Positions 1,324 to 16,645 of a DNA stretch of 64,000 bases are shown piece after piece. Positions within the stretch are counted from its first letter, which is position 1; each line of letters opens with the position of its first letter. The position numbers and the translations under genes were made by a program. The notes below the pieces were generated by a model, which made no database searches, had not been told where the DNA came from, and worked only from the letters and a program-made list of their open reading frames with translations. Source of the stretch: an uncultured bacterium (GTDB lineage: Bacteria; Acidobacteriota; HRBIN11; JAKEFK01); the NCBI GenBank assembly GCA_963777505.1, contig CAVZQN010000008.1, positions 256,001-320,000 on the forward strand, written 5' to 3'.

Positions 1324-3444
1324 TTACACTTTGAAAATGGAGATTTCCTGTTTGAGGATGCTGGTTTGCTCCAGCAGTAAAGACAATGCGCGATTCATTG
1401 CGGCTACACTGTCCACATTTTTTTGATTTATTTCTTTGAAGAACTCCACGATTTTTACTATTTGATCGCTGCCTTTCGCCTGTTCTCCGGTTGCTTTCAT
1501 AATATGAGTTACCATTTCTGTTACGTTTTCGATAGCCATTGTTATTTGCTTGCTTCCCTTGGATTGCTCTAACGTGGCGCGGTTTACATAACCTGTCATT
1601 TCACGCATATTTTCAACAGCAGAAATAATCTGTTCACTTCCACCTTTTTGTTCTGTTGTGGCTTTTGTGATTTGCATTGTCATTTCGCGAACTTGTTCGA
1701 TTGCCTGGTTGATCGAACGGATTCCGCGGGATTGTTCCTCGGTGGCATTTGCGATTTCTTTTGCCATATCGGAAGAATTTCGTGCAGAGTCCAGAATTTT
1801 TTTCAAATTCTCGCCCGCTTGAACGGAGAGTTTCACACCTTCTTCAACTGCTTGAGATCCACCGCTCATTGTTTGAACCGCGTTTCCAACATCACGCTGA
1901 ACAGCCCTAATTAAGGTATCAATTTCTTTTGTGGACGATCCTGTACGTTCCGCCAGACCTCGAATTTCCTCTGCAACTACGGCAAAACCTTTACCATGTT
2001 CTCCCGCTTGCGCAGCAATGATTGCAGCATTCAACGCAAGCAGATTCGTTTGTTCGGCGACATCATCAATTACGTTTAAAATCTTGCCGATCTCTTCCGA
2101 ACTGTTGCCAAGTTTTGTTATGACATCACTTGAACGGAATACTGCTTGCTTGATTTTCTCCATTCCTCCGATTGTCATTTCAACTGATCTCATTCCCATT
2201 TCAGCATTCGTTGTAACTTGTTCGCTGAGTGTGTGAGAGCTTGCCGCGCTCTTTTCAACCTGGCGTATTGAACTTTCCATTTCTTTTATAGATACAGCCG
2301 TATCTGAAATGAGATTGCTCAACAATTCAATGCTCTTGTCCACTTGCTGGATTGAAGAAACCATTTCGGCAATCGATGACGCTGTATCATCTACGGATTC
2401 GGAAAGGCTTCTTATATGTCCACTAACCTGCTCAATTGTCGCTGCCATTTCCATGATTGAAGAAGATGTTTCCTCTGAAGAGGCTGAAAGATTTTCAACA
2501 TTTCCCGCAACGCCTTTCAATGATGAATTCATTTCTGTTATGGCGGACGAGATTTCTTCAAGTGATGCAACCTGTGAACGTGATCCTTCAAGAACCTGTA
2601 AAGCATTTGTCTGAATTTGTTCCCGTCCTTCATCGACACGTTTATATGCTTCGCGGATTCCACGAATCATATTTGCAAGGTTTGCTGCCATTGCATTGAA
2701 TGATTCTGCGAGTGTTCCAAGTTCATCCTTGGACGTCGCTTCAACTTGCTGATTCAAATCACCTCTAGCAAGACCCGATGCTGCTTCAGCTACACGGATG
2801 ACAGGCGTGGTTGTAAAAGTTCTTAACAAGTATGCAGCTGCGGCACCAAATAAAATGGCCACAAGAATTACGCCGAGGCACCAATATATTAGGCGGTTGC
2901 GAGCAGCATCAAGAGTATTCGGCTCCATCGCCATACGAACTACACCAATTGTTCTCTTTTGCAGTGCTCCATTCTGTGTAGAAGCCGTGACTTCAACTTG
3001 AGCATGAAAGTCGTATAGCTCTACTCCGTCTTTGCCTAAAACTCGCGCACCTTCAGGTCTTCGTAATAAGGAATCTAAAATAAATCTGGAATAATCTGCG
3101 GGTCTGTGAGCTGGATCGCTTTGTGCCTTGTACTGTCCATCCCCTGTTTGAATAATGTTGCCATCAGGATCAATAAATTCCACATATCTAATTCCTTCTT
3201 CCTGCATCAATTTGTTAATGATCGGTTTGAGCTCATCCGCCAAGCCGAGACTAACTTGATAGGAATGTGATTCTGCCAAACGACGGACGATTACCTGTCC
3301 ACGATTTAACAATTCAGTTTGAAGGCTGCGGTATGAAATAACGATTAAAACGACGCCAAGAGCAACCATCAAGGCGATAAAAGTGAGGACGAGCAGGTTT
3401 ATCTTGAAACGAATACTCTTATTACGGAACCAGGTTATTGCCAT
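1324..3444 (-). CDS. Methyl-accepting chemotaxis protein (2 TM, HAMP, long signalling domain)
   Basis: Two TM segments, HAMP (DELGTLAESFNAM), hairpin tip QTNLLALNAAIIAAQAGEHGKGFAVVAEEIRGLAERT. Confidence 0.95.
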   Translation of the reverse strand: MAITWFRNKSIRFKINLLVLTFIALMVALGVVLIVISYRSLQTELLNRGQVIVRRLAESHSYQVSLGLADELKPIINKLMQEEGIRYVEFIDPDGNIIQTGDGQYKAQSDPAHRPADYSRFILDSLLRRPEGARVLGKDGVELYDFHAQVEVTASTQNGALQKRTIGVVRMAMEPNTLDAARNRLIYWCLGVILVAILFGAAAAYLLRTFTTTPVIRVAEAASGLARGDLNQQVEATSKDELGTLAESFNAMAANLANMIRGIREAYKRVDEGREQIQTNALQVLEGSRSQVASLEEISSAITEMNSSLKGVAGNVENLSASSEETSSSIMEMAATIEQVSGHIRSLSESVDDTASSIAEMVSSIQQVDKSIELLSNLISDTAVSIKEMESSIRQVEKSAASSHTLSEQVTTNAEMGMRSVEMTIGGMEKIKQAVFRSSDVITKLGNSSEEIGKILNVIDDVAEQTNLLALNAAIIAAQAGEHGKGFAVVAEEIRGLAERTGSSTKEIDTLIRAVQRDVGNAVQTMSGGSQAVEEGVKLSVQAGENLKKILDSARNSSDMAKEIANATEEQSRGIRSINQAIEQVREMTMQITKATTEQKGGSEQIISAVENMREMTGYVNRATLEQSKGSKQITMAIENVTEMVTHIMKATGEQAKGSDQIVKIVEFFKEINQKNVDSVAAMNRALSLLLEQTSILKQEISIFKV

Positions 3445-3482
3445 TTATTTATTTGTAGTGATGCCAAGCGGATCGCCATTAA

Positions 3483-4385
3483 TTATTGGTACACCTTATG
3501 AGCCGCATCCTGCACATTTTTCGGAATTGTTAATCCCAGCAATCCTGCTGCGCGAGTGTTGATGATGATCCTGGAACGTTGCATCTCTTGAATAGGGAGT
3601 TTTGATGGAGATGTTCCTTGTAAAATCTTATTTGCTAATTCGCCTGCCATACGCCCCGCCTCTACTGAATCAATCGTCATTGAGAAAATAGCCCCCGATC
3701 TCACGTATCTTTCACTTGGACCTACACACGGAATTTGTTTCGTAAGTGAAGTTTGACCAATGTAACGGATCACTTCCTCTGAGTTTAACGAAGGATCAGG
3801 TGGAATCCAAAGAGCATCTATTTTGTCGATTATTTCTCCCATTGCTTTCTGAATCTCCTGACCATTCGTGATACGTGCCGTGACAAGATCCAGATCCATG
3901 CCGGTTGCAGTAGTCTTTGCTGTGGCAATCAAAGAGTCGTTCGCAGGTTGCGTATAGATAACCCCGAGACGTTTTATTTTTTTATTAATGTTTTTCAGAA
4001 TCGTAAACTGCTCTTTCACCCGGACGTCGACACTGATTCCAGTAACGTTGTCGGCTTTCAATGAATTCGCTTGCGGACTTACAACCATACAAAAAACAAC
4101 AGGCAAAGTTGGGAAAGTATTTTTAGCATATTCTGCAGCCCGCGCGCCTAGAGCCAATACAATCTGATACTTTCCGGACCGTATTTCTGTTGTAATTTCA
4201 TTGTGGTTCGAAAGATCATCCTGGAGCGTAAACTCTTTAGCAGTTTCAAAACAGATGCTAGAAAATCCGTTTCGTGCTTCGTCAAATACAGCAACGCCGG
4301 GGGTTTTTATGATTGCAACGTCAGCATATGACGCCTGAACAATCAGGATCAGGATCATTGAAGAAAGCTTCAGAACATTTATCAT
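3483..4385 (-). CDS. ABC-type substrate-binding protein (ABC_sub_bind family), exported
   Basis: Signal peptide; LPVVFCMV, NVTGIS, DALWIPPD, IINTRAAGLLGLTIP motifs. Confidence 0.85.
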   Translation of the reverse strand: MINVLKLSSMILILIVQASYADVAIIKTPGVAVFDEARNGFSSICFETAKEFTLQDDLSNHNEITTEIRSGKYQIVLALGARAAEYAKNTFPTLPVVFCMVVSPQANSLKADNVTGISVDVRVKEQFTILKNINKKIKRLGVIYTQPANDSLIATAKTTATGMDLDLVTARITNGQEIQKAMGEIIDKIDALWIPPDPSLNSEEVIRYIGQTSLTKQIPCVGPSERYVRSGAIFSMTIDSVEAGRMAGELANKILQGTSPSKLPIQEMQRSRIIINTRAAGLLGLTIPKNVQDAAHKVYQ

Positions 4386-4439
4386 CCGCTCTGGACTCCC
4401 TCCGTTAAATACCTGAAAAGACGCGGGAAAGACGGAAAA

Positions 4440-4468
4440 ATTGTATAACCCCTGAATATTCGAGTCAA
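4440..4468 (-). promoter_or_regulatory. sigma70-type promoter for the SBP-MCP-GT4 run
   Basis: Minus strand TTGACT-N17-TACAAT. Confidence 0.65.
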
Positions 4469-4474
4469 GGACGC

Positions 4475-5326
4475 TTACATTCGAAAACGTGGATCAAGCC
4501 GATCGCGCAATGCATCGCCCAACAAATTGAACATCAAAACAGAAAGAAAAATTGATAAACCTGGGAACATCATAAGGTAAGGAGCATCGAGCAAATGATT
4601 TTTCCCTTCGTTTAACATTGTCCCCCATGATGGATGTGGAGGCTGCACACCAAGACCAAGAAAACTGAGTGAGGATTCTGCAAGGATTACACCTGCAAAA
4701 CTGAAACTAGCATGGACGATCAACGAGGGCATGACATTGGGAAAAATGTGATGAATCAAAATACGCGAGGGGTTTGAACCTAGATTGATTGCAGCGCGGA
4801 CAAAATCTAACTCTCTTAGCTTTAAGGTCAGCCCACGAGCCAGACGTGCATAAGAAACCCACCCGATCGTTACAAGTGCTATGACGACATTTTGCAAACT
4901 GGGTCCGAGTATCGCCATCAGCGCAATTGCCAGCAAGATTCCAGGAAACGCGAGAAGCACATCAGCAAGTCTCATCACTACTTCATCCAGCAAACCGCCT
5001 CGAAATCCTGCAATAAGGCCGACTGAGACACCGAAAACCATGGAAAGAAGTACAACGACGAATGAGACAAAGAATGAAATCCGCCCTCCATACAACAACC
5101 GCGTCAAGATGTCTCGTCCCAATTCATCGGTTCCAAGCCAGTGTTTGCTCGAGGGGACTTGAAGCCTTGAGGGCAGATCAATCGTATCGTAAGCAAAAGG
5201 AGAAAGAACCGGCGCAAGAATTGAGAGGAATAAGATTGCAAAAAGGCCCACGGCGCACAATTGGGCTATCCTGTTTTTAACTGGCAAACTGACAGGTACG
5301 GTACTTTGTTCTGAGACTTCCAGCAT
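4475..5326 (-). CDS. Peptide/nickel ABC transporter permease (DppC/OppC type)
   Basis: HWLGTDELGRDILTRLLYGGR, EAA-like loop, ESSLSFLGLG, FNLLGDALRDRLDPR; likely start ATG 5326. Confidence 0.92.
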   Translation of the reverse strand: MLEVSEQSTVPVSLPVKNRIAQLCAVGLFAILFLSILAPVLSPFAYDTIDLPSRLQVPSSKHWLGTDELGRDILTRLLYGGRISFFVSFVVVLLSMVFGVSVGLIAGFRGGLLDEVVMRLADVLLAFPGILLAIALMAILGPSLQNVVIALVTIGWVSYARLARGLTLKLRELDFVRAAINLGSNPSRILIHHIFPNVMPSLIVHASFSFAGVILAESSLSFLGLGVQPPHPSWGTMLNEGKNHLLDAPYLMMFPGLSIFLSVLMFNLLGDALRDRLDPRFRM

Positions 5327-5491: not shown

Positions 5492-7222
5492 ATGCCGTTA
5501 AAACTTGGCGAACTGCTTCTCAGAAATAAGCTGGTAACTAAAGAACAGCTTGATAAAGCCCTCGAGCTTCAAAAAACAAACAACAGCAAGCTTGGATATA
5601 ACCTCGTTAAAATGGGGTTCGTTTCGGATGAAGAGATCGCGACCTGCCTCAGCAAACAATTCGGAATTTCTGCAATCAATTTATCGCATTTCGAAATAGA
5701 TCAAAGTGTTTTGGATCTGGTTCCTGTTGAAGTCTGCCGAAAATACGATTTGCTTCCGGTGAACCGCACAGGCGCAGTTCTCACTGTTGCGATGTCGGAT
5801 CCAACGAATATCCGCGCGATGGATGAAATCAACTTTATCTGCGGTTATCAAGTGGAACCTGTTGTTGCATCTGAATATGCAATCAAAGAATCCATTGATA
5901 AATATTATGGCTCAACACACGCTCTAGAATTAAAACAAGCAATGCAAGCCGCGATTGCTGAACGTGATCTTGACACCGATATTGAGGACCTTGAAGTCCT
6001 TGAAGAATCTGCGGAGTTGGATCTTGCAACTCTTGAAAAACAAACTGAAGATGCTCCCGTCGTTAAGCTTGTCAACAAAGTTCTTTACGATGCCCTGAAC
6101 GAAGGCGCAAGCGATATTCACGTTGAACCTTATGAGAAGGAATTTCGCGTACGTTACCGCATTGACGGCGTTTTGTACGTAAAAATAAATCCTCCATTGA
6201 AACTTCGCGATGCCATCACTTCACGTATCAAAATCATGGCAAAGCTGGACATTGCGGAAAAAAGATTGCCACAAGATGGCCGTATCAAGATCAAAACGAA
6301 ACATCAAGGCCGTATGAAGGAATTAGATTATCGTGTCTCCGTTATTCCAACCTTGTACGGTGAGAAAATCGTTTTACGACTGCTTGATAAAGACAACTTA
6401 AAGCTGGATATGACAAAGCTTGGTCTTGAAGCTGACTCGCTGCGGCGTTTGGAAAAAGCAATATTAAAGCCTTATGGAATGATTCTCGTTACAGGACCAA
6501 CTGGCAGCGGAAAGACGAATACTCTTTATTCAGCAATGTCACGTATCAACACTCCGGAAATTAACATCTTAACTGCAGAAGATCCGGTTGAATTCAATAT
6601 CACCGGAATCAATCAAGTTCAGATGAAAGAACAGATCGGATTAAATTTTGCAGCGGCATTGCGTTCTTTCCTGCGACAGGATCCGAATATCATCCTGGTT
6701 GGCGAGATCCGTGATTTTGAAACTGCTGAAATTGCCATTAAAGCAGCATTGACGGGCCATCTTGTTTTAAGCACGCTTCACACAAACGATGCACCAAGCA
6801 CCGTTAACCGCCTGATGAACATGGGAATTGAACCATTTCTTGTAGCATCATCAGTCTTACTCATCGTCGCTCAGCGCTTAATTCGTAAAATTTGTGGCGA
6901 ATGTAAGGAAGAATATCGAGTTCCACTGGAAGCGCTCATCGATATTGGGTTTTCCGAAGATGAAGCAGGTGGAGTTACGATTTACAAAGGGCGGGGATGT
7001 CCGTTATGCGGCAATACTGGGTATAAGGGTAGGGTAGGCTTGTTTGAAGTACTTGAAGTGACGGATAATATCCGTGAATTGATTCTGGTAGGCGCCTCCG
7101 CAATAGAGATACGCCGGAAAGCGGTTGAAGAAGGGATGGTTTCATTGCGTGCCAGCGGCCTGGAAAAGTTGAAAGTGGGACTTACCACAATCGAAGAGGT
7201 ACTACGGGAAACAGTTGCCTAA
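5492..7222 (+). CDS. pilB: Type IV-A pilus assembly ATPase
   Basis: MshEN-like KLGELL N-terminus, Walker A GPTGSGKT, LRQDPNIILVGEIRD, Zn-binding CxxC pairs. Confidence 0.96.
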   Translation: MPLKLGELLLRNKLVTKEQLDKALELQKTNNSKLGYNLVKMGFVSDEEIATCLSKQFGISAINLSHFEIDQSVLDLVPVEVCRKYDLLPVNRTGAVLTVAMSDPTNIRAMDEINFICGYQVEPVVASEYAIKESIDKYYGSTHALELKQAMQAAIAERDLDTDIEDLEVLEESAELDLATLEKQTEDAPVVKLVNKVLYDALNEGASDIHVEPYEKEFRVRYRIDGVLYVKINPPLKLRDAITSRIKIMAKLDIAEKRLPQDGRIKIKTKHQGRMKELDYRVSVIPTLYGEKIVLRLLDKDNLKLDMTKLGLEADSLRRLEKAILKPYGMILVTGPTGSGKTNTLYSAMSRINTPEINILTAEDPVEFNITGINQVQMKEQIGLNFAAALRSFLRQDPNIILVGEIRDFETAEIAIKAALTGHLVLSTLHTNDAPSTVNRLMNMGIEPFLVASSVLLIVAQRLIRKICGECKEEYRVPLEALIDIGFSEDEAGGVTIYKGRGCPLCGNTGYKGRVGLFEVLEVTDNIRELILVGASAIEIRRKAVEEGMVSLRASGLEKLKVGLTTIEEVLRETVA

Positions 7223-12838: not shown

Positions 12839-14722
12839 TTAATTTTCTTCTTTTTCTTTACGCGCCGAGGCAATCAAGCTTTTGGCTTCGCCATTATGAG
12901 CGTCGATGCTCAGGACTCGTTCCCCGATTTGGATCGCATCATCGTATTTGCGATCCATCATTAACGTTCGCCAGCCCAAATTTAATAGCTGCTTCACGAA
13001 TTCTACTTTCTTTTTTTCTTCAATATACGAAATCACCATTTTCGCAGTTTCGTTCGCTGGCTCTAATTGTAAGATTTCATCAAATGTACCTTGAGCATCA
13101 TCATAACTGCCAAGTTCCATTTGTTTATTTCCACGAAAAACAAGCTTATCAATTTGTCGCTTACGCATAGAATCATTTAAAGCTTCCATACGTTTCAACG
13201 CGACAGGATGCTGGGGAAGAATTTTCAAAGCTTTTTCAAGAGCTTTCTTTGCGGTTTCAAACTGCGATTCGTTTATGAAGTGTTCTGCGCTTCGTAAATA
13301 TTCATTAAATTCTTCTAATGTTACGCGTTCCCTGATCAAAACTTGCAGCTCATAAGCTCCTTGATGTTCCGGTACAGCCTTGAGTACGTCTTCAACATAC
13401 CTATGAGCTAATTGATATTTCTTCTGCTCAATCGCGAGTCTCGCTTGCTGTACTAACTCTTCGATCTCAGGCTGGACCATTTCACTTTTCACTGTTTCAA
13501 GTAACATTCGCGCTTTCGAATGATTGGGCTGGATCTTCAAAATTTTTTCGAAAGCCTTCATCGCGATGTCATATCTTCCTTCGCGCATGTAATTCTGTCC
13601 CTGTCGCAGCAAGTCTTCTGCCTCTGCTTTTTTGATATCTTGCTCAACCATTTGCAGAAGTTGACTTGCATCGCGATCGTTTGGATCGATCTGGAGCGCT
13701 TGTTTGATGAATGAAATTGCCTGAACAGTGTGCCCTTCCACAATGTGCTTTTTTGCGGTGCGAAGAAAATTCGTGATTCGAGGGTCCGATTTCTGAGGCG
13801 TTAAAGGCTCCTGCACCGCCTTCTCCGCTGCCGTGGGCGTGTCCTTACTGGAACTTGGAGCGACTAATTCCTGAGTGGTGGCTTGTTGTGTACTTGAGCG
13901 CTCTGGTGAAAAGGAACGCAAAAAGTTTTCTAGATCATCAGCCATTTCATCTGCGGAAAAGTAACGCCTGGCAGGATCCTTATCAAGGGCTTTTCTTAAA
14001 ACACGGCCGATCGGAGCAAATTGCTCATCAATGGGCGGATCCATTTTTTGATATGGTTCATGAAGAATATGATAAAGAATCGTTGCAGTATTATCTCCAT
14101 CAAATGGTTTGCGTCCACTTAACAACTCATAAAAAATAATCCCGACTGCGAAGATATCTGATTTCCGGTCTACATGTGCGCCTTTAATCTGTTCAGGCGC
14201 CATATACTGAATCGTTCCAAGCACCATTCCACCCGAAGTCATTGTTGTACTTGTTACGAGTCGTGCAATTCCGAAATCCAGAACTTTTACATGAAAGTCA
14301 TCCGTAAGACGAACGTTTGAAGGTTTAATATCTCGATGCACAATTCCTGACTTATGTGCATAAGCAAGTCCACGGCAAAGTTGGATTACGATTCTGACTT
14401 TTTGTTCGAGTGAGACTTCTTGTTTGCTTTTGATAACAGCATGAATATCCGATCCGTGGATGTATTCCATACCAATGTATGGAACGCTGTTTTCTTCGCC
14501 CAGTTCATAGATTGTTACTATATTCGGATGGCGAAGCCTTCCGGCGGCGCGCGCTTCTCGATAGAAACGCTCTTTCAGAACAGGATCTTTCAACCCTTCC
14601 GCCGTCATTGTTTTCAGGGCGATTTCTCTATCGAGGATCGGATCGTAAGCCTTATAAACGACCCCCATACCGCCCCGACCAAGGACTTCGAGAATCTCAT
14701 ACTTCCCGATTTTGGAGGACAT
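12839..14722 (-). CDS. Hanks-type Ser/Thr protein kinase with C-terminal TPR repeats, no TM
   Basis: GRGGMGVVY, HRDIKPSN, DFGIA, YMAPE; repeated A...F...L.I.P TPR units. Confidence 0.94.
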   Translation of the reverse strand: MSSKIGKYEILEVLGRGGMGVVYKAYDPILDREIALKTMTAEGLKDPVLKERFYREARAAGRLRHPNIVTIYELGEENSVPYIGMEYIHGSDIHAVIKSKQEVSLEQKVRIVIQLCRGLAYAHKSGIVHRDIKPSNVRLTDDFHVKVLDFGIARLVTSTTMTSGGMVLGTIQYMAPEQIKGAHVDRKSDIFAVGIIFYELLSGRKPFDGDNTATILYHILHEPYQKMDPPIDEQFAPIGRVLRKALDKDPARRYFSADEMADDLENFLRSFSPERSSTQQATTQELVAPSSSKDTPTAAEKAVQEPLTPQKSDPRITNFLRTAKKHIVEGHTVQAISFIKQALQIDPNDRDASQLLQMVEQDIKKAEAEDLLRQGQNYMREGRYDIAMKAFEKILKIQPNHSKARMLLETVKSEMVQPEIEELVQQARLAIEQKKYQLAHRYVEDVLKAVPEHQGAYELQVLIRERVTLEEFNEYLRSAEHFINESQFETAKKALEKALKILPQHPVALKRMEALNDSMRKRQIDKLVFRGNKQMELGSYDDAQGTFDEILQLEPANETAKMVISYIEEKKKVEFVKQLLNLGWRTLMMDRKYDDAIQIGERVLSIDAHNGEAKSLIASARKEKEEN

Positions 14723-14787
14723 AGGATGCCTTGAGCGGAAGTATACCAGATTCCAATCGAGTGTAAGGCAAGTCTAAAACCATCAGG

Positions 14788-15804
14788 TCAAACACTGGAG
14801 CCGGCGTATTTTCGCGCTTTTAGAAGATGAACCAGATACATGCTCCAATGTCGATCATAATTTCGGAGTATCCAGGGAACGTCAAATTGCTGTTGTAGAA
14901 TTTTGTACTTCAATTCCATTTTGGGAATGTAATCGTCTTCGAGAATTTTTTGCAGCATTTCAGGCGCAGTCATGACTTCGTTTTCGAGCCATTCATCGAC
15001 TTTCGAAATATCAGTATGCCAATCATAGGGAGAGGATAAAATCAGGTCGCCATCCACTTTTAATAGAGCATCCATTTGTCCGATCAAAATCAGAGGCACC
15101 GCGACATTGTCCAAAATATTTAATCCAGACACAACATCGAATGAATAGGCTTTGAATGGAGGATTCAATGCATCTGCAACGAGAAACAGTGCGTTCGCCG
15201 GTGCAAGATAGGGTTCGTGAATGCTCTGATAGTACTCTCCCCGTATTCTTCTTTTGTATGTAGCTGTTTGGGTGCGTTGAGTACGCTCAGCGGCGGCCAA
15301 CGCGATAAAGTTCAAATCGATTCCAACAGCTAACTGGCTGCAACGTGCCAATTCAAATGTGTAACGTCCAACAGAACATCCAATATCCAGCGCGAATTCA
15401 TAATGATTTGAATCAATCAACTCAATTGCCTTTTTCCAAAATTCATCCAGTGATGAAACGGGATAATGCGAATCCATGTATGCAGAGAGGGCACCCTCAT
15501 TTACTTCAACTGGCTGATTCTTAAGGTCATAAAAATTCCGGATCTCCGGAGTTTTTTCAAGAAATGTAGAAAGCTGAAGCGAATCGGATCTCATCCATTT
15601 ATCAATATCTTTTAGGACGATTGGTACACCCGCTAGAACAGGAAATTTCTTTTCACAGGAAGGATTGGAACAAGAAAGGAATCCAGTTTGGACAAAATCT
15701 TCATCTTTTTTAAAGATGGAATCCAGCTTTAGTGGAGATTGTAATTCAGGCTTTCGACACTCAGGACAAATGATTGAAATCTGTTCGAAAGCCTCTTCTC
15801 GCAA
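14788..15804 (-). CDS. Class I SAM methyltransferase with Trm112-like Cys-rich N-terminus; resembles the OvoA C-terminal histidine N-methyltransferase domain
   Basis: CPEC...CSNPSC..FPVLAGVP; ALDIGCSVGRYTFELAR; ADA; LILSSPYDW; DVPWILR. Confidence 0.8.
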   Translation of the reverse strand: MREEAFEQISIICPECRKPELQSPLKLDSIFKKDEDFVQTGFLSCSNPSCEKKFPVLAGVPIVLKDIDKWMRSDSLQLSTFLEKTPEIRNFYDLKNQPVEVNEGALSAYMDSHYPVSSLDEFWKKAIELIDSNHYEFALDIGCSVGRYTFELARCSQLAVGIDLNFIALAAAERTQRTQTATYKRRIRGEYYQSIHEPYLAPANALFLVADALNPPFKAYSFDVVSGLNILDNVAVPLILIGQMDALLKVDGDLILSSPYDWHTDISKVDEWLENEVMTAPEMLQKILEDDYIPKMELKYKILQQQFDVPWILRNYDRHWSMYLVHLLKARKYAGSSV

Positions 15805-15813
15805 GAATTTTTA

Positions 15814-16315
15814 CTATTTCTTTTCTTCATCGAGACGTGTTGCCGGCTTATCGTTTACTAATTTGCTTGGTGGCGCGGAAATAGGAAGTTCCATATTCGG
15901 GTGAGGCGGCGATGAAGTGCCAGGCGACCATTTATCAGGCATTGCAGTACCGGGCAGATGTACGTCCGGATGCAGCGGCGCGGAAGGATGAGTGGGTGTG
16001 CCATTTTTCGGCGTTAGCGGATCCAGGAAGATTTATGTCCGGATGCAGCGGTGCTGAAGGATGAGGAGGCGACCATTTATCAGGTATGGCAGTGCCTGCA
16101 TCACCAGCTGTTTTCAAATTCCCTTGTAGCTTTACTTTCATCAGTTCAGCTTGAGAATCCATTACCCCTTTGGCTTCAGTAGCACTACTGGGATTGCCCG
16201 GTTGAGGCGTAATTTTTTCGGGAAGTGCTTCTTTCACACTCGGCGTTGTTTGGTTGTTCTCAAACTCAGGCATAGATGGCTTAATCGGGCCACCTGGAGA
16301 TCCAATCTTGGTCAT
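15814..16315 (-). CDS. Hypothetical Pro/His-rich protein with three ~24-aa repeats; 1-nt frameshift near 16000
   Basis: GGAGGT RBS; removing one base near 16000 gives a 166-aa ORF that restores repeats 2-3; DNA repeat spacings 73 and 145 nt equal 72n+1. Confidence 0.7.
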
Positions 16316-16504
16316 CGACGCACCTCCGTGCTATCATCAATAGAGTATCACTTACCCTTACGTACGTCGCCACTTATGGAGGTAGTTCTGTCCTCATCCC
16401 CTTCGCTCCTCCGCTCCCCTGCTCCCCTGCATTCATCCATACACGAAACAGTTTTTGTAATTTCATAGAGGATATTGTTATAATCTCGGCTTTCCCTTAT
16501 ATTT

Positions 16505-16576
16505 AGGCGCGTAGCTCAGTGGGAGAGCGCTTCCTTGACACGGAAGAGGTTGGCGGTTCGATCCCGCCCGCGCCTA
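16505..16576 (+). tRNA. tRNA-Val(GAC), CCA not encoded
   Basis: Acceptor AGGCGCG/CGCGCCT, D arm GCTC/GAGC, anticodon arm CTTCC-TTGACAC-GGAAG, T arm GGCGG-TTCGATC-CCGCC. Confidence 0.97.
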
Positions 16577-16645
16577 TAGCTGATAATGAACATAAAAATG
16601 ATTTTTAAGACCACGTATTAATCCCGCCTTTCGTGCACTCGAACT

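Follow-up and report, generated by a model that had tools for sequence, protein, structure and literature searches.

Which molecule receives the methyl group, when an enzyme of the OvoA type has been inserted into a genome together with a single small protein rich in histidine and proline? The question is posed by a 64,000-nucleotide (nt) stretch from an uncultured acidobacterium (the window), in which the gene for such a methyltransferase directly follows an open reading frame (ORF) with His-Pro repeats, here called gene 1. Judging from the sequences, we put at about one half the probability that the two genes encode a protein-histidine methyltransferase and its substrate, derived from a cassette built on PAAR, the spike-tip protein of type VI secretion and other contractile systems. 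Under this model the ~1.7-kb two-gene module, which is inserted between a tRNA-Val gene and an ancestral kinase gene, would have its ancestry in cassettes where the same enzyme family stands directly after a full PAAR gene. Of PAAR, gene 1 would have retained no more than the His-Pro loop and the first motif, and it would have multiplied the loop. Its product, of ~166 amino acids (aa), would be mostly disordered, with a one-helix leader, three His-Pro units and a single PAAR motif. The enzyme, with S-adenosylmethionine (SAM), would then methylate a ring nitrogen of the conserved histidines in P-H-P type motifs of this product, the same loop of PAAR having been the target in the ancestral cassettes. 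For a catalytic domain that belongs with the imidazole N-methyltransferases, methylation of gene 1 histidines would be the simplest mechanism.

The enzyme gene and its two domains are placed as follows:

14788..15804, minus strand: methyltransferase gene, 338 aa, TTG start (ORF list, hidden Markov models (HMMs) and AlphaFold2 (AF2) model)
15613..15774, minus strand: Trm112-like Cys4 zinc ribbon, residues 11-64 (C13, C16, C45 and C50 invariant in 22 sequences)
14824..15489, minus strand: OvoM/OvsM-like class I SAM methyltransferase domain, residues 106-327 (TIGR04345, PDB profile matches and Foldseek)

Pfam recognizes only generic class I methyltransferase domains in this protein. The preliminary description, made from the letters and an ORF list, had recognized in it a relative of the OvoA C-terminal domain, and this identification holds: all four motifs that it quoted are present in the translation, and the NCBIfam model TIGR04345 (ovoA_Cterm), which it had named as a check, matches with an E-value (E) of 4.5e-26 over model positions 7-237 of 242. 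The score of 91.9 bits lies under the cut-off of 170, by which the enzyme is not a member of the ovothiol equivalog. Searched against the PDB, a profile of the enzyme family retrieves OvsM (9bxh, E 6.8e-29), OvoM (9bxl, E 1.4e-25) and OvoA (8khq, E 3.7e-24), with which it shares homology throughout the catalytic domain, the same fold and, in the profile alignment, the Y-x-D-x-H-Y and SPY motifs. Foldseek likewise ranks OvoA, OvsM and OvoM first for the AF2 model (predicted local distance difference test (pLDDT) 86.7, predicted template-modelling score (pTM) 0.89), with target-normalised template-modelling (TM) scores of 0.77-0.80 and root-mean-square deviations of 2.8-3.3 Å to 9bxh/j/k and 9bxl/m/n, and places RlmA(I) and CARNMT1 next. 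The match to CARNMT1 (5yf0), another histidine-ring methyltransferase of related fold, is much weaker than those to OvoM and OvsM (E 3.4e-9, TM ~0.5), and is missing from the PDB profile listing. CARNMT1 methylates the N-pi atom of histidine, including zinc-finger histidines in proteins.

Unlike OvoM, OvsM and OvoA, the window's enzyme adds an N-terminal Cys4 ribbon. This module matches the archaeal Trm112 model NF038101 (E 0.003) at 17.7 bits against a cut-off of 77, and the PDB entries 6zxw_H and 2kpi at E ~5e-3; Pfam's Trm112p is matched by one enzyme homologue only, that of locus L024 (E 2.8e-4), and some JGI records label homologues 'YbaR (Trm112 family)'. As with Trm112 and its partners, a small Cys4 ribbon is found next to a class I methyltransferase, although here the two are fused in cis. 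The enzymes known to pair with Trm112 methylate tRNA, rRNA or release factors, and none of them is known to act on imidazole rings. When 22 homologues, the window's enzyme among them, are aligned, the G-C-x-V-G SAM motif and 38 further columns are invariant, including the four ribbon cysteines and the Y..H motif. These HMM matches and the alignment bear out the fused Cys-rich module that had been described, and neither Pfam nor NCBIfam finds a sulfoxide/selenoxide synthase domain in the protein, also as described. By sequence and model, then, the enzyme is a predicted fusion of a Cys4 zinc ribbon with an imidazole N-methyltransferase of the OvoM/OvsM type.

That kinship also raises the prospect of a small-molecule methyltransferase, acting on a free histidine derivative of the ovothiol or ovoselenol kind, with gene 1 an unrelated neighbour. 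The closest characterized relatives, OvoM, OvsM and OvoA, have 5-thio- or 5-selenohistidine as substrate, and OvsM is reported to N-pi-methylate 5-selenohistidine and to reject free histidine (PMC11030361). We consider this improbable for the window's enzyme, given its score under the equivalog cut-off, a genome with no OvoA-type synthase partner at cut-off (the best TIGR04344 match in G000, the window's own genome, reaches 121.9 bits against 400, on another contig, C1), and a conserved neighbour that is a PAAR or mini-PAAR gene, not a thiol-histidine gene, in a linkage that persists across two deep clades of the enzyme.

The partner gene is interrupted in the assembly, and its parts are these:

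15814..16315, minus strand: gene 1, the "mini-PAAR", a His/Pro-rich small protein of 166 codons with the extra base set aside (intact homologues; frame kept in related contigs)
16315..15935 and 15996..15817, minus strand: gene 1 as assembled, a 126-aa frame and a 60-residue frame, then a stop (ORF list and translation)
15999..16000, minus strand: extra frame-breaking base, its exact place within 'CACA' ambiguous (contig X3 lacks 1 base there, contig X2 73 nt)
16323..16327, minus strand: Shine-Dalgarno-like GGAGG, 7 nt upstream of the ATG at 16315 (read from sequence)
15880..16096, minus strand: tandem array of three units (72, 73 and 72 nt) that all encode the pattern [AM]-P-D/E-K-W ... H-P ... 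H-P ... L-P (DNA identity against shuffles)
15826..15921, minus strand: C-terminal stretch like the PAAR His-Pro loop and first PAAR motif, PHP ... LVN-x-KPA-x-R-x-D/E (custom PAAR HMM, hhalign)

Setting aside a 1-nt insertion near 16000, as the preliminary description had proposed, does give an ORF of 166 codons (105 + 1 + 60), the +1 frame from 15996 extending the repeat pattern by 60 residues up to the stop at 15816-15814, which lies 9 nt before the TTG of the enzyme, again as proposed. The three repeats are also as quoted, each unit encoding 24 residues (u1, 16096-16025; u2, 16024-15952; u3, 15951-15880). At the DNA level, identity between u1 and u2 (55/74) and between u1 and u3 (54/75) exceeds the maximum of 300 shuffles (47 and 46, respectively); that between u2 and u3 (45/77) falls inside the shuffle range (maximum 48), and Tandem Repeats Finder calls nothing in the region.

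An inspection of the reads at 16000 had been recommended; contigs of the runs X3 and X2 are free of the extra base, a contig-level result from four metagenome runs that each cover at most 0.10 of the window, with thin read-level support. The X3 contig (151 nt, depth 2.1, four other letters different) has one base fewer at 15999, which restores the frame. The X2 contig (15.4 kb, depth 108, ~90% alike) covers 14871-15979 and 16053-16500, with the enzyme adjoining the ORF, and the 73 nt that it skips between 15979 and 16053 amount to one 72-nt unit and the extra base. Its remaining indels within the ORF are +6 and -3, and those not divisible by three (2, 1, 11, 1, 1 and 1 nt) lie upstream of the ATG only. 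Relatives hold the frame of gene 1 open and vary in repeat number. The extra base in the window is an error of assembly or a peculiarity of the strain; as it is not conserved, it is not a programmed frameshift.

Protein searches place gene 1 in a family of ~10 members. To the homologues P0059 (159 aa), P0061 (146 aa), P0060 (144 aa) and P0062 (79 aa), a profile search of 1.84 billion representatives added P0064 (137 aa), P0065 (148 aa), P0066 (131 aa), P0067 (90 aa) and P0069 (140 aa), seven matches in that search reaching E <=1e-3. One of the seven, the 3245-aa P0068, was set aside as probably compositional (E 2e-6 on a 30-residue stretch), as was the best ESM Atlas match of P0059, an 'EspF repeat' at 0.81, compositional and below the lead threshold. 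Members have in common an MTKIGS-type start, a helix-forming stretch, a His-Pro core of variable length and the tail P..L[IV]N..PA, with nine columns invariant in eight rows, including two histidines, residues 85 and 129 of P0059, and the P..L.N..PA motif. The leader of ~75 residues is conserved and has one predicted helix (residues 47-69 of P0059); the AF2 model is disordered (pLDDT 58) apart from this helix. In three cases a homologue of the ORF and one of the enzyme come from contigs of the same size (9624, 3138 and 54393 nt), and for P0003, P0059, P0060, P0061 and P0063 adjacency is read from equal contig sizes only. Because intact homologues of 131-159 aa exist, the frame is kept in related contigs and a GGAGG precedes the ATG, gene 1 is a real gene, and it is retained with the enzyme in relatives.

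A conserved leader before a variable Pro/His core is also what a pathway for ribosomally synthesized and post-translationally modified peptides (RiPPs) would call for, and the preliminary description had offered a RiPP-like reading. In such a pathway gene 1 would be a leader-core precursor, its histidines methylated, the leader removed and the peptide exported. A B12-binding radical SAM enzyme does accompany the pair in more distant cassettes, but nothing beyond the leader-like N-terminus was found for this reading at the locus itself, where the insertion consists of two genes, with no protease or transporter adjacent, as had been noted, and no cyclase. We give it a slim chance, since the conservation of the PAAR motif at the C-terminus and an origin in a structural spike protein are easier to reconcile with a protein partner than with a peptide released by cleavage.

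The descent in question, which the preliminary description had missed, was recognized from ORFs upstream of other members of the enzyme family. With an HMM made from nine such PAAR ORFs, the top match among the six-frame ORFs of the window is 15817-16032 (E 0.0075; next match, 2.8), in an alignment that joins the gene 1 tail to the His-Pro loop and first PAAR motif. Profile comparison with hhalign of the eight-row gene 1 family against 13 PAARs gives a probability of 79% (P 1.5e-5) over 31 columns, with one of three PAAR motifs aligned where the PAAR cone has all three. When 401 genomes of the phylum were searched with the gene 1 profile, matches were found in two, the window's own and G134, and in G134 the profile falls (E 6.9e-8) on the N-terminal end of a PAAR that is complete at 128 aa, contains a His/Pro-rich insert and is followed directly by a 370-aa homologue of the enzyme. 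As far as sequence can tell, gene 1 and the N-terminal part of the cassette PAAR are homologous. Gene 1 resembles the PAAR spike tips (PF05488; 4jiv, 4jiw and SalCis10, 9rce_c) in the alignment of its tail and in its place directly upstream of the enzyme. It differs from them in having one motif of three and no Pfam match, in the loss of the Cys/His cluster of the loop, in the gain of the ~75-residue leader and the multiplied His-Pro segment, in a model that is disordered, and in a genome without VgrG.

Gene 1 is not the only ORF of this kind in its genome. Outside the window, at C8:415018-415242 (E 8.9e-6; plus strand of locus L121, 1468-1728), a second single-motif mini-PAAR of 86 aa begins with MTKI, shares the HGCPACPHP loop with the cassette PAARs and stops after a single PAAR motif; it is located between a RidA-like gene and an aquaporin gene and has one homologue (P0071, 87 aa, 80% identity), while a search of five genomes from the same family did not find it. 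The start shared by these single-motif ORFs indicates that mini-PAARs are a small, distinct family rather than an isolated case of truncation.

The preliminary description had also overlooked that PAAR, in cassettes with VgrG, is the usual partner of this enzyme family. A scan of 185,579 species genomes yielded 510 related places, the best 80 of which were analysed, and linkage was counted where a PAAR ORF, found with the custom HMMs, ended within 400 nt upstream of the enzyme gene on the same strand. PAAR is directly upstream in 35 of the 80 loci, elsewhere in the locus in 4, and absent from 41. At 36% enzyme identity or more the proportion is 13 of 15, the exceptions being L012, with PAAR 5 kb off, and L011, with none; at 25-31% identity it is 21 of 28 (elsewhere in 3, none in 4). 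The Desulfobacterales, a separate subfamily with partial enzyme matches only, have a single upstream PAAR in 37 loci. A metagenome scan with the single enzyme protein returned no relative, and one with the alignment A2 returned 12 loci, all at 55% identity or less; six of these have PAAR upstream, one has it ~850 nt off, and the other five have less than 110 nt of upstream sequence. Pfam's PF05488 confirmed 11 of the PAAR ORFs upstream of the enzyme. In a quick maximum-likelihood tree of 56 rows (midpoint root; support from the Shimodaira-Hasegawa-like approximate likelihood ratio test (SH-aLRT) only; L025 dropped as too short, 7 of the 37 rows of L054-L090 included, and the window's row flagged for composition heterogeneity), the window's enzyme forms one clade with P0003 and P0063 (SH-aLRT 100), nested in a clade of 21 rows (SH-aLRT 97), 15 of them PAAR-linked. 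It had been proposed that homologous methyltransferases lacking a linked repeat ORF would speak against a pairing; close homologues do have the linked ORF, and distant ones carry PAAR in its stead.

The 15 closest genome loci (36-51% enzyme identity) contain a recurrent cassette, annotated with Pfam, of VgrG, sometimes DUF4123, PAAR (~106-118 aa), the enzyme, a 280-aa protein, DUF2169, an O-methyltransferase and a B12-radical-SAM enzyme, in some cases beside TssG/ClpV or sheath genes. In the 25-31% clade the recurring unit is a trio of PAAR, enzyme and B12-radical-SAM gene, often with no secretion genes within 6 kb; one locus there adjoins contractile-injection tube and hub genes. The closest clade of the window's enzyme is thus situated inside type VI accessory cassettes (VgrG, DUF4123, PAAR, DUF2169/Tvp), whereas the window's own genome (95.9% complete) gives no match to PF05488, PF05943, PF09937 or PF05954, and PAAR, VipB, DUF2169 and Phage_GPD were not found in it. 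The pair, by sequence, descends from the PAAR and methyltransferase unit of type VI secretion clusters. This pairing suggests that the enzymes may methylate histidines of their partner proteins, and a protein-histidine substrate is a reasonable inference; that the gene 1 product is the substrate, that a histidine is the target, and what part the modified protein would play where type VI secretion is lacking, we infer.

Genes after PAAR in type VI clusters are often cargo or accessory genes, and the cassettes hold adaptors such as DUF4123 and DUF2169, the latter reported to stabilize PAAR-like proteins (PMC13373197). On this analogy the zinc ribbon might bind the N-terminal loop of PAAR and the enzyme serve as spike cargo or as an assembly factor; gene 1 would retain the binding epitope alone, and the methyl acceptor would be something else. 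Two observations make a docking role of this sort unlikely: the PAAR-enzyme pair also occurs with no secretion genes in 6 kb on either side (as in L026-L029 and L032, with B12-radical-SAM as the recurring third gene), and the catalytic motifs are invariant across both clades. Methylation of the partner protein remains our preferred reading, and a broader version of it, to which we attach a modest likelihood, would have the PAAR tips of type VI and related contractile injection systems modified by dedicated cassette enzymes, through OvoM-like histidine methylation in the tip loop and further methyl transfer by B12-radical-SAM enzymes, with gene 1 as a free-standing mini-PAAR that retained and multiplied the modified loop once the injection machinery was gone, and that may trimerise.

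Several findings pull the other way. The likeness between gene 1 and PAAR spans only ~31 columns of Pro-rich sequence, was weak in hhalign when the gene 1 family had six rows (probability 8.7%, P 0.0038), and is not seen by Pfam, whose models, including PF05488 for PAAR, match neither frame of gene 1. SalCis10, a PAAR of solved structure, has the aligned loop histidine as well, so this residue is not specific to enzyme-linked PAARs; SalCis10 presumably has no such enzyme beside it, none being known to us. The second mini-PAAR of the genome has no adjoining methyltransferase. On the side of the enzyme, a score under the TIGR04345 cut-off means that the substrate need not be a histidine ring, and the reported substrate of OvsM is a free amino acid, not a protein (PMC11030361).

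The integrity of gene 1 is a further concern. The window copy is frameshifted, P0062 (79 aa) and P0033 (198 aa), from contigs of the same size, are both truncated, and P0060 shows internal frame changes; together with a genome in which PAAR and the secretion genes searched for were not found, and a module not found in the 6 searched genomes of the same family, the same genus included, these features could mark a decaying remnant, in which gene 1 would be a functionless, truncated PAAR pseudogene from a horizontally acquired cassette, and the enzyme idle or on its way out. Yet at least six diverged homologues (131-159 aa) keep leader, core, tail and the nine invariant columns, the X2 indels are multiples of three when the extra base is discounted, X3 lacks that base, and the enzyme retains all residues invariant in its family. 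The conserved leader, moreover, is absent from PAAR proteins and was gained, for which decay alone offers no explanation, and we therefore rate a mere remnant as rather unlikely.

The position of the module in the genome has two marks:

14753..16451, no strand assigned: two-gene insertion of ~1.7 kb, missing at the syntenic place in the same-genus genome G001 (blastn against L117)
16504..16577, plus strand: tRNA-Val(GAC) bordering the insertion, Rfam's only match (counterpart 90% identical in G001)

On the minus strand of the window the 126-aa ORF, the 338-aa enzyme and a 627-aa gene for a kinase with tetratricopeptide repeats (14722..12839) stand in a row, and the preliminary description had considered this kinase a possible modifier of the W-S/T-P sites of the repeats. 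Synteny does not favour that link. The window and G001 share a response regulator gene, the kinase gene (79% aa identity), a spacer of ~80 nt, the tRNA-Val block and the gene for threonyl-tRNA synthetase (ThrRS), and because the kinase of G001 lies ~80 nt from the tRNA-Val/ThrRS block in the absence of both genes, it is not part of the module; it is an ancestral neighbour of the tRNA, unrelated to the pair. The insertion holds exactly gene 1 and the enzyme gene, and its guanine-plus-cytosine content is similar to that of its surroundings.

To our knowledge, few protein-histidine methyltransferases are known in bacteria. In listings and abstracts of the literature open to us, whose coverage of subscription journals was thin, we found no description of a methyltransferase in PAAR or type VI cassettes and no account of an enzyme that modifies the PAAR tip of the type VI spike. 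If the preferred reading is true, the window offers a compact, soluble system of two genes in which to study a family of methyltransferases that occurs beside PAAR genes in many phyla, and it would point to contractile injection machines being chemically modified at their very tip; if the module is only a remnant, it documents the shrinkage of a spike-tip gene to a single motif.

Some minor observations concern the surroundings of the insertion. The segment 16452-16576 is 90% identical to its counterpart in G001, where flanking genes are 74-82% identical, and G001 has ~870 nt between response regulator and kinase (L117 4623-5493) that are lacking in the window. Genomes G001-G004 and G006 each have 93-149 kinase-domain matches (E <=1e-20), the lineage being very rich in Ser/Thr kinases.

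Others concern the cassettes of the enzyme family. The ~280-aa protein has Pro-rich motifs and no Pfam or NCBIfam family, and lies 3' of the methyltransferase in 11 of the 15 closest genome loci and 8 of the 12 metagenome loci (L011-L022, L025, L030, L031, L045, L091-L094 and L097-L100; for example, L013:7245-8093); kinship of gene 1 with it was tried and rejected (HMM E 0.86 and 3.2 in the window, hhalign P 0.063). Genes for B12-binding radical SAM enzymes recur with PAAR and methyltransferase in L012, L013, L017, L024 and L026-L028, and L012, L013 and L017 also carry a Methyltransf_2 O-methyltransferase, a recurrence that hints at several modifications of one target. At L025 the methyltransferase is split into frames of 236 and 98 aa (6001-7028), and the VgrG upstream (2381-4981) has a C-terminal Peptidase_M91 domain. 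The closest genome homologue, from Poribacteria (L011), which has no PAAR, is preceded by genes for a resolvase, a TnpB-like protein (Cas12f1-like TNB) and PPK2 (L011:567-2646).

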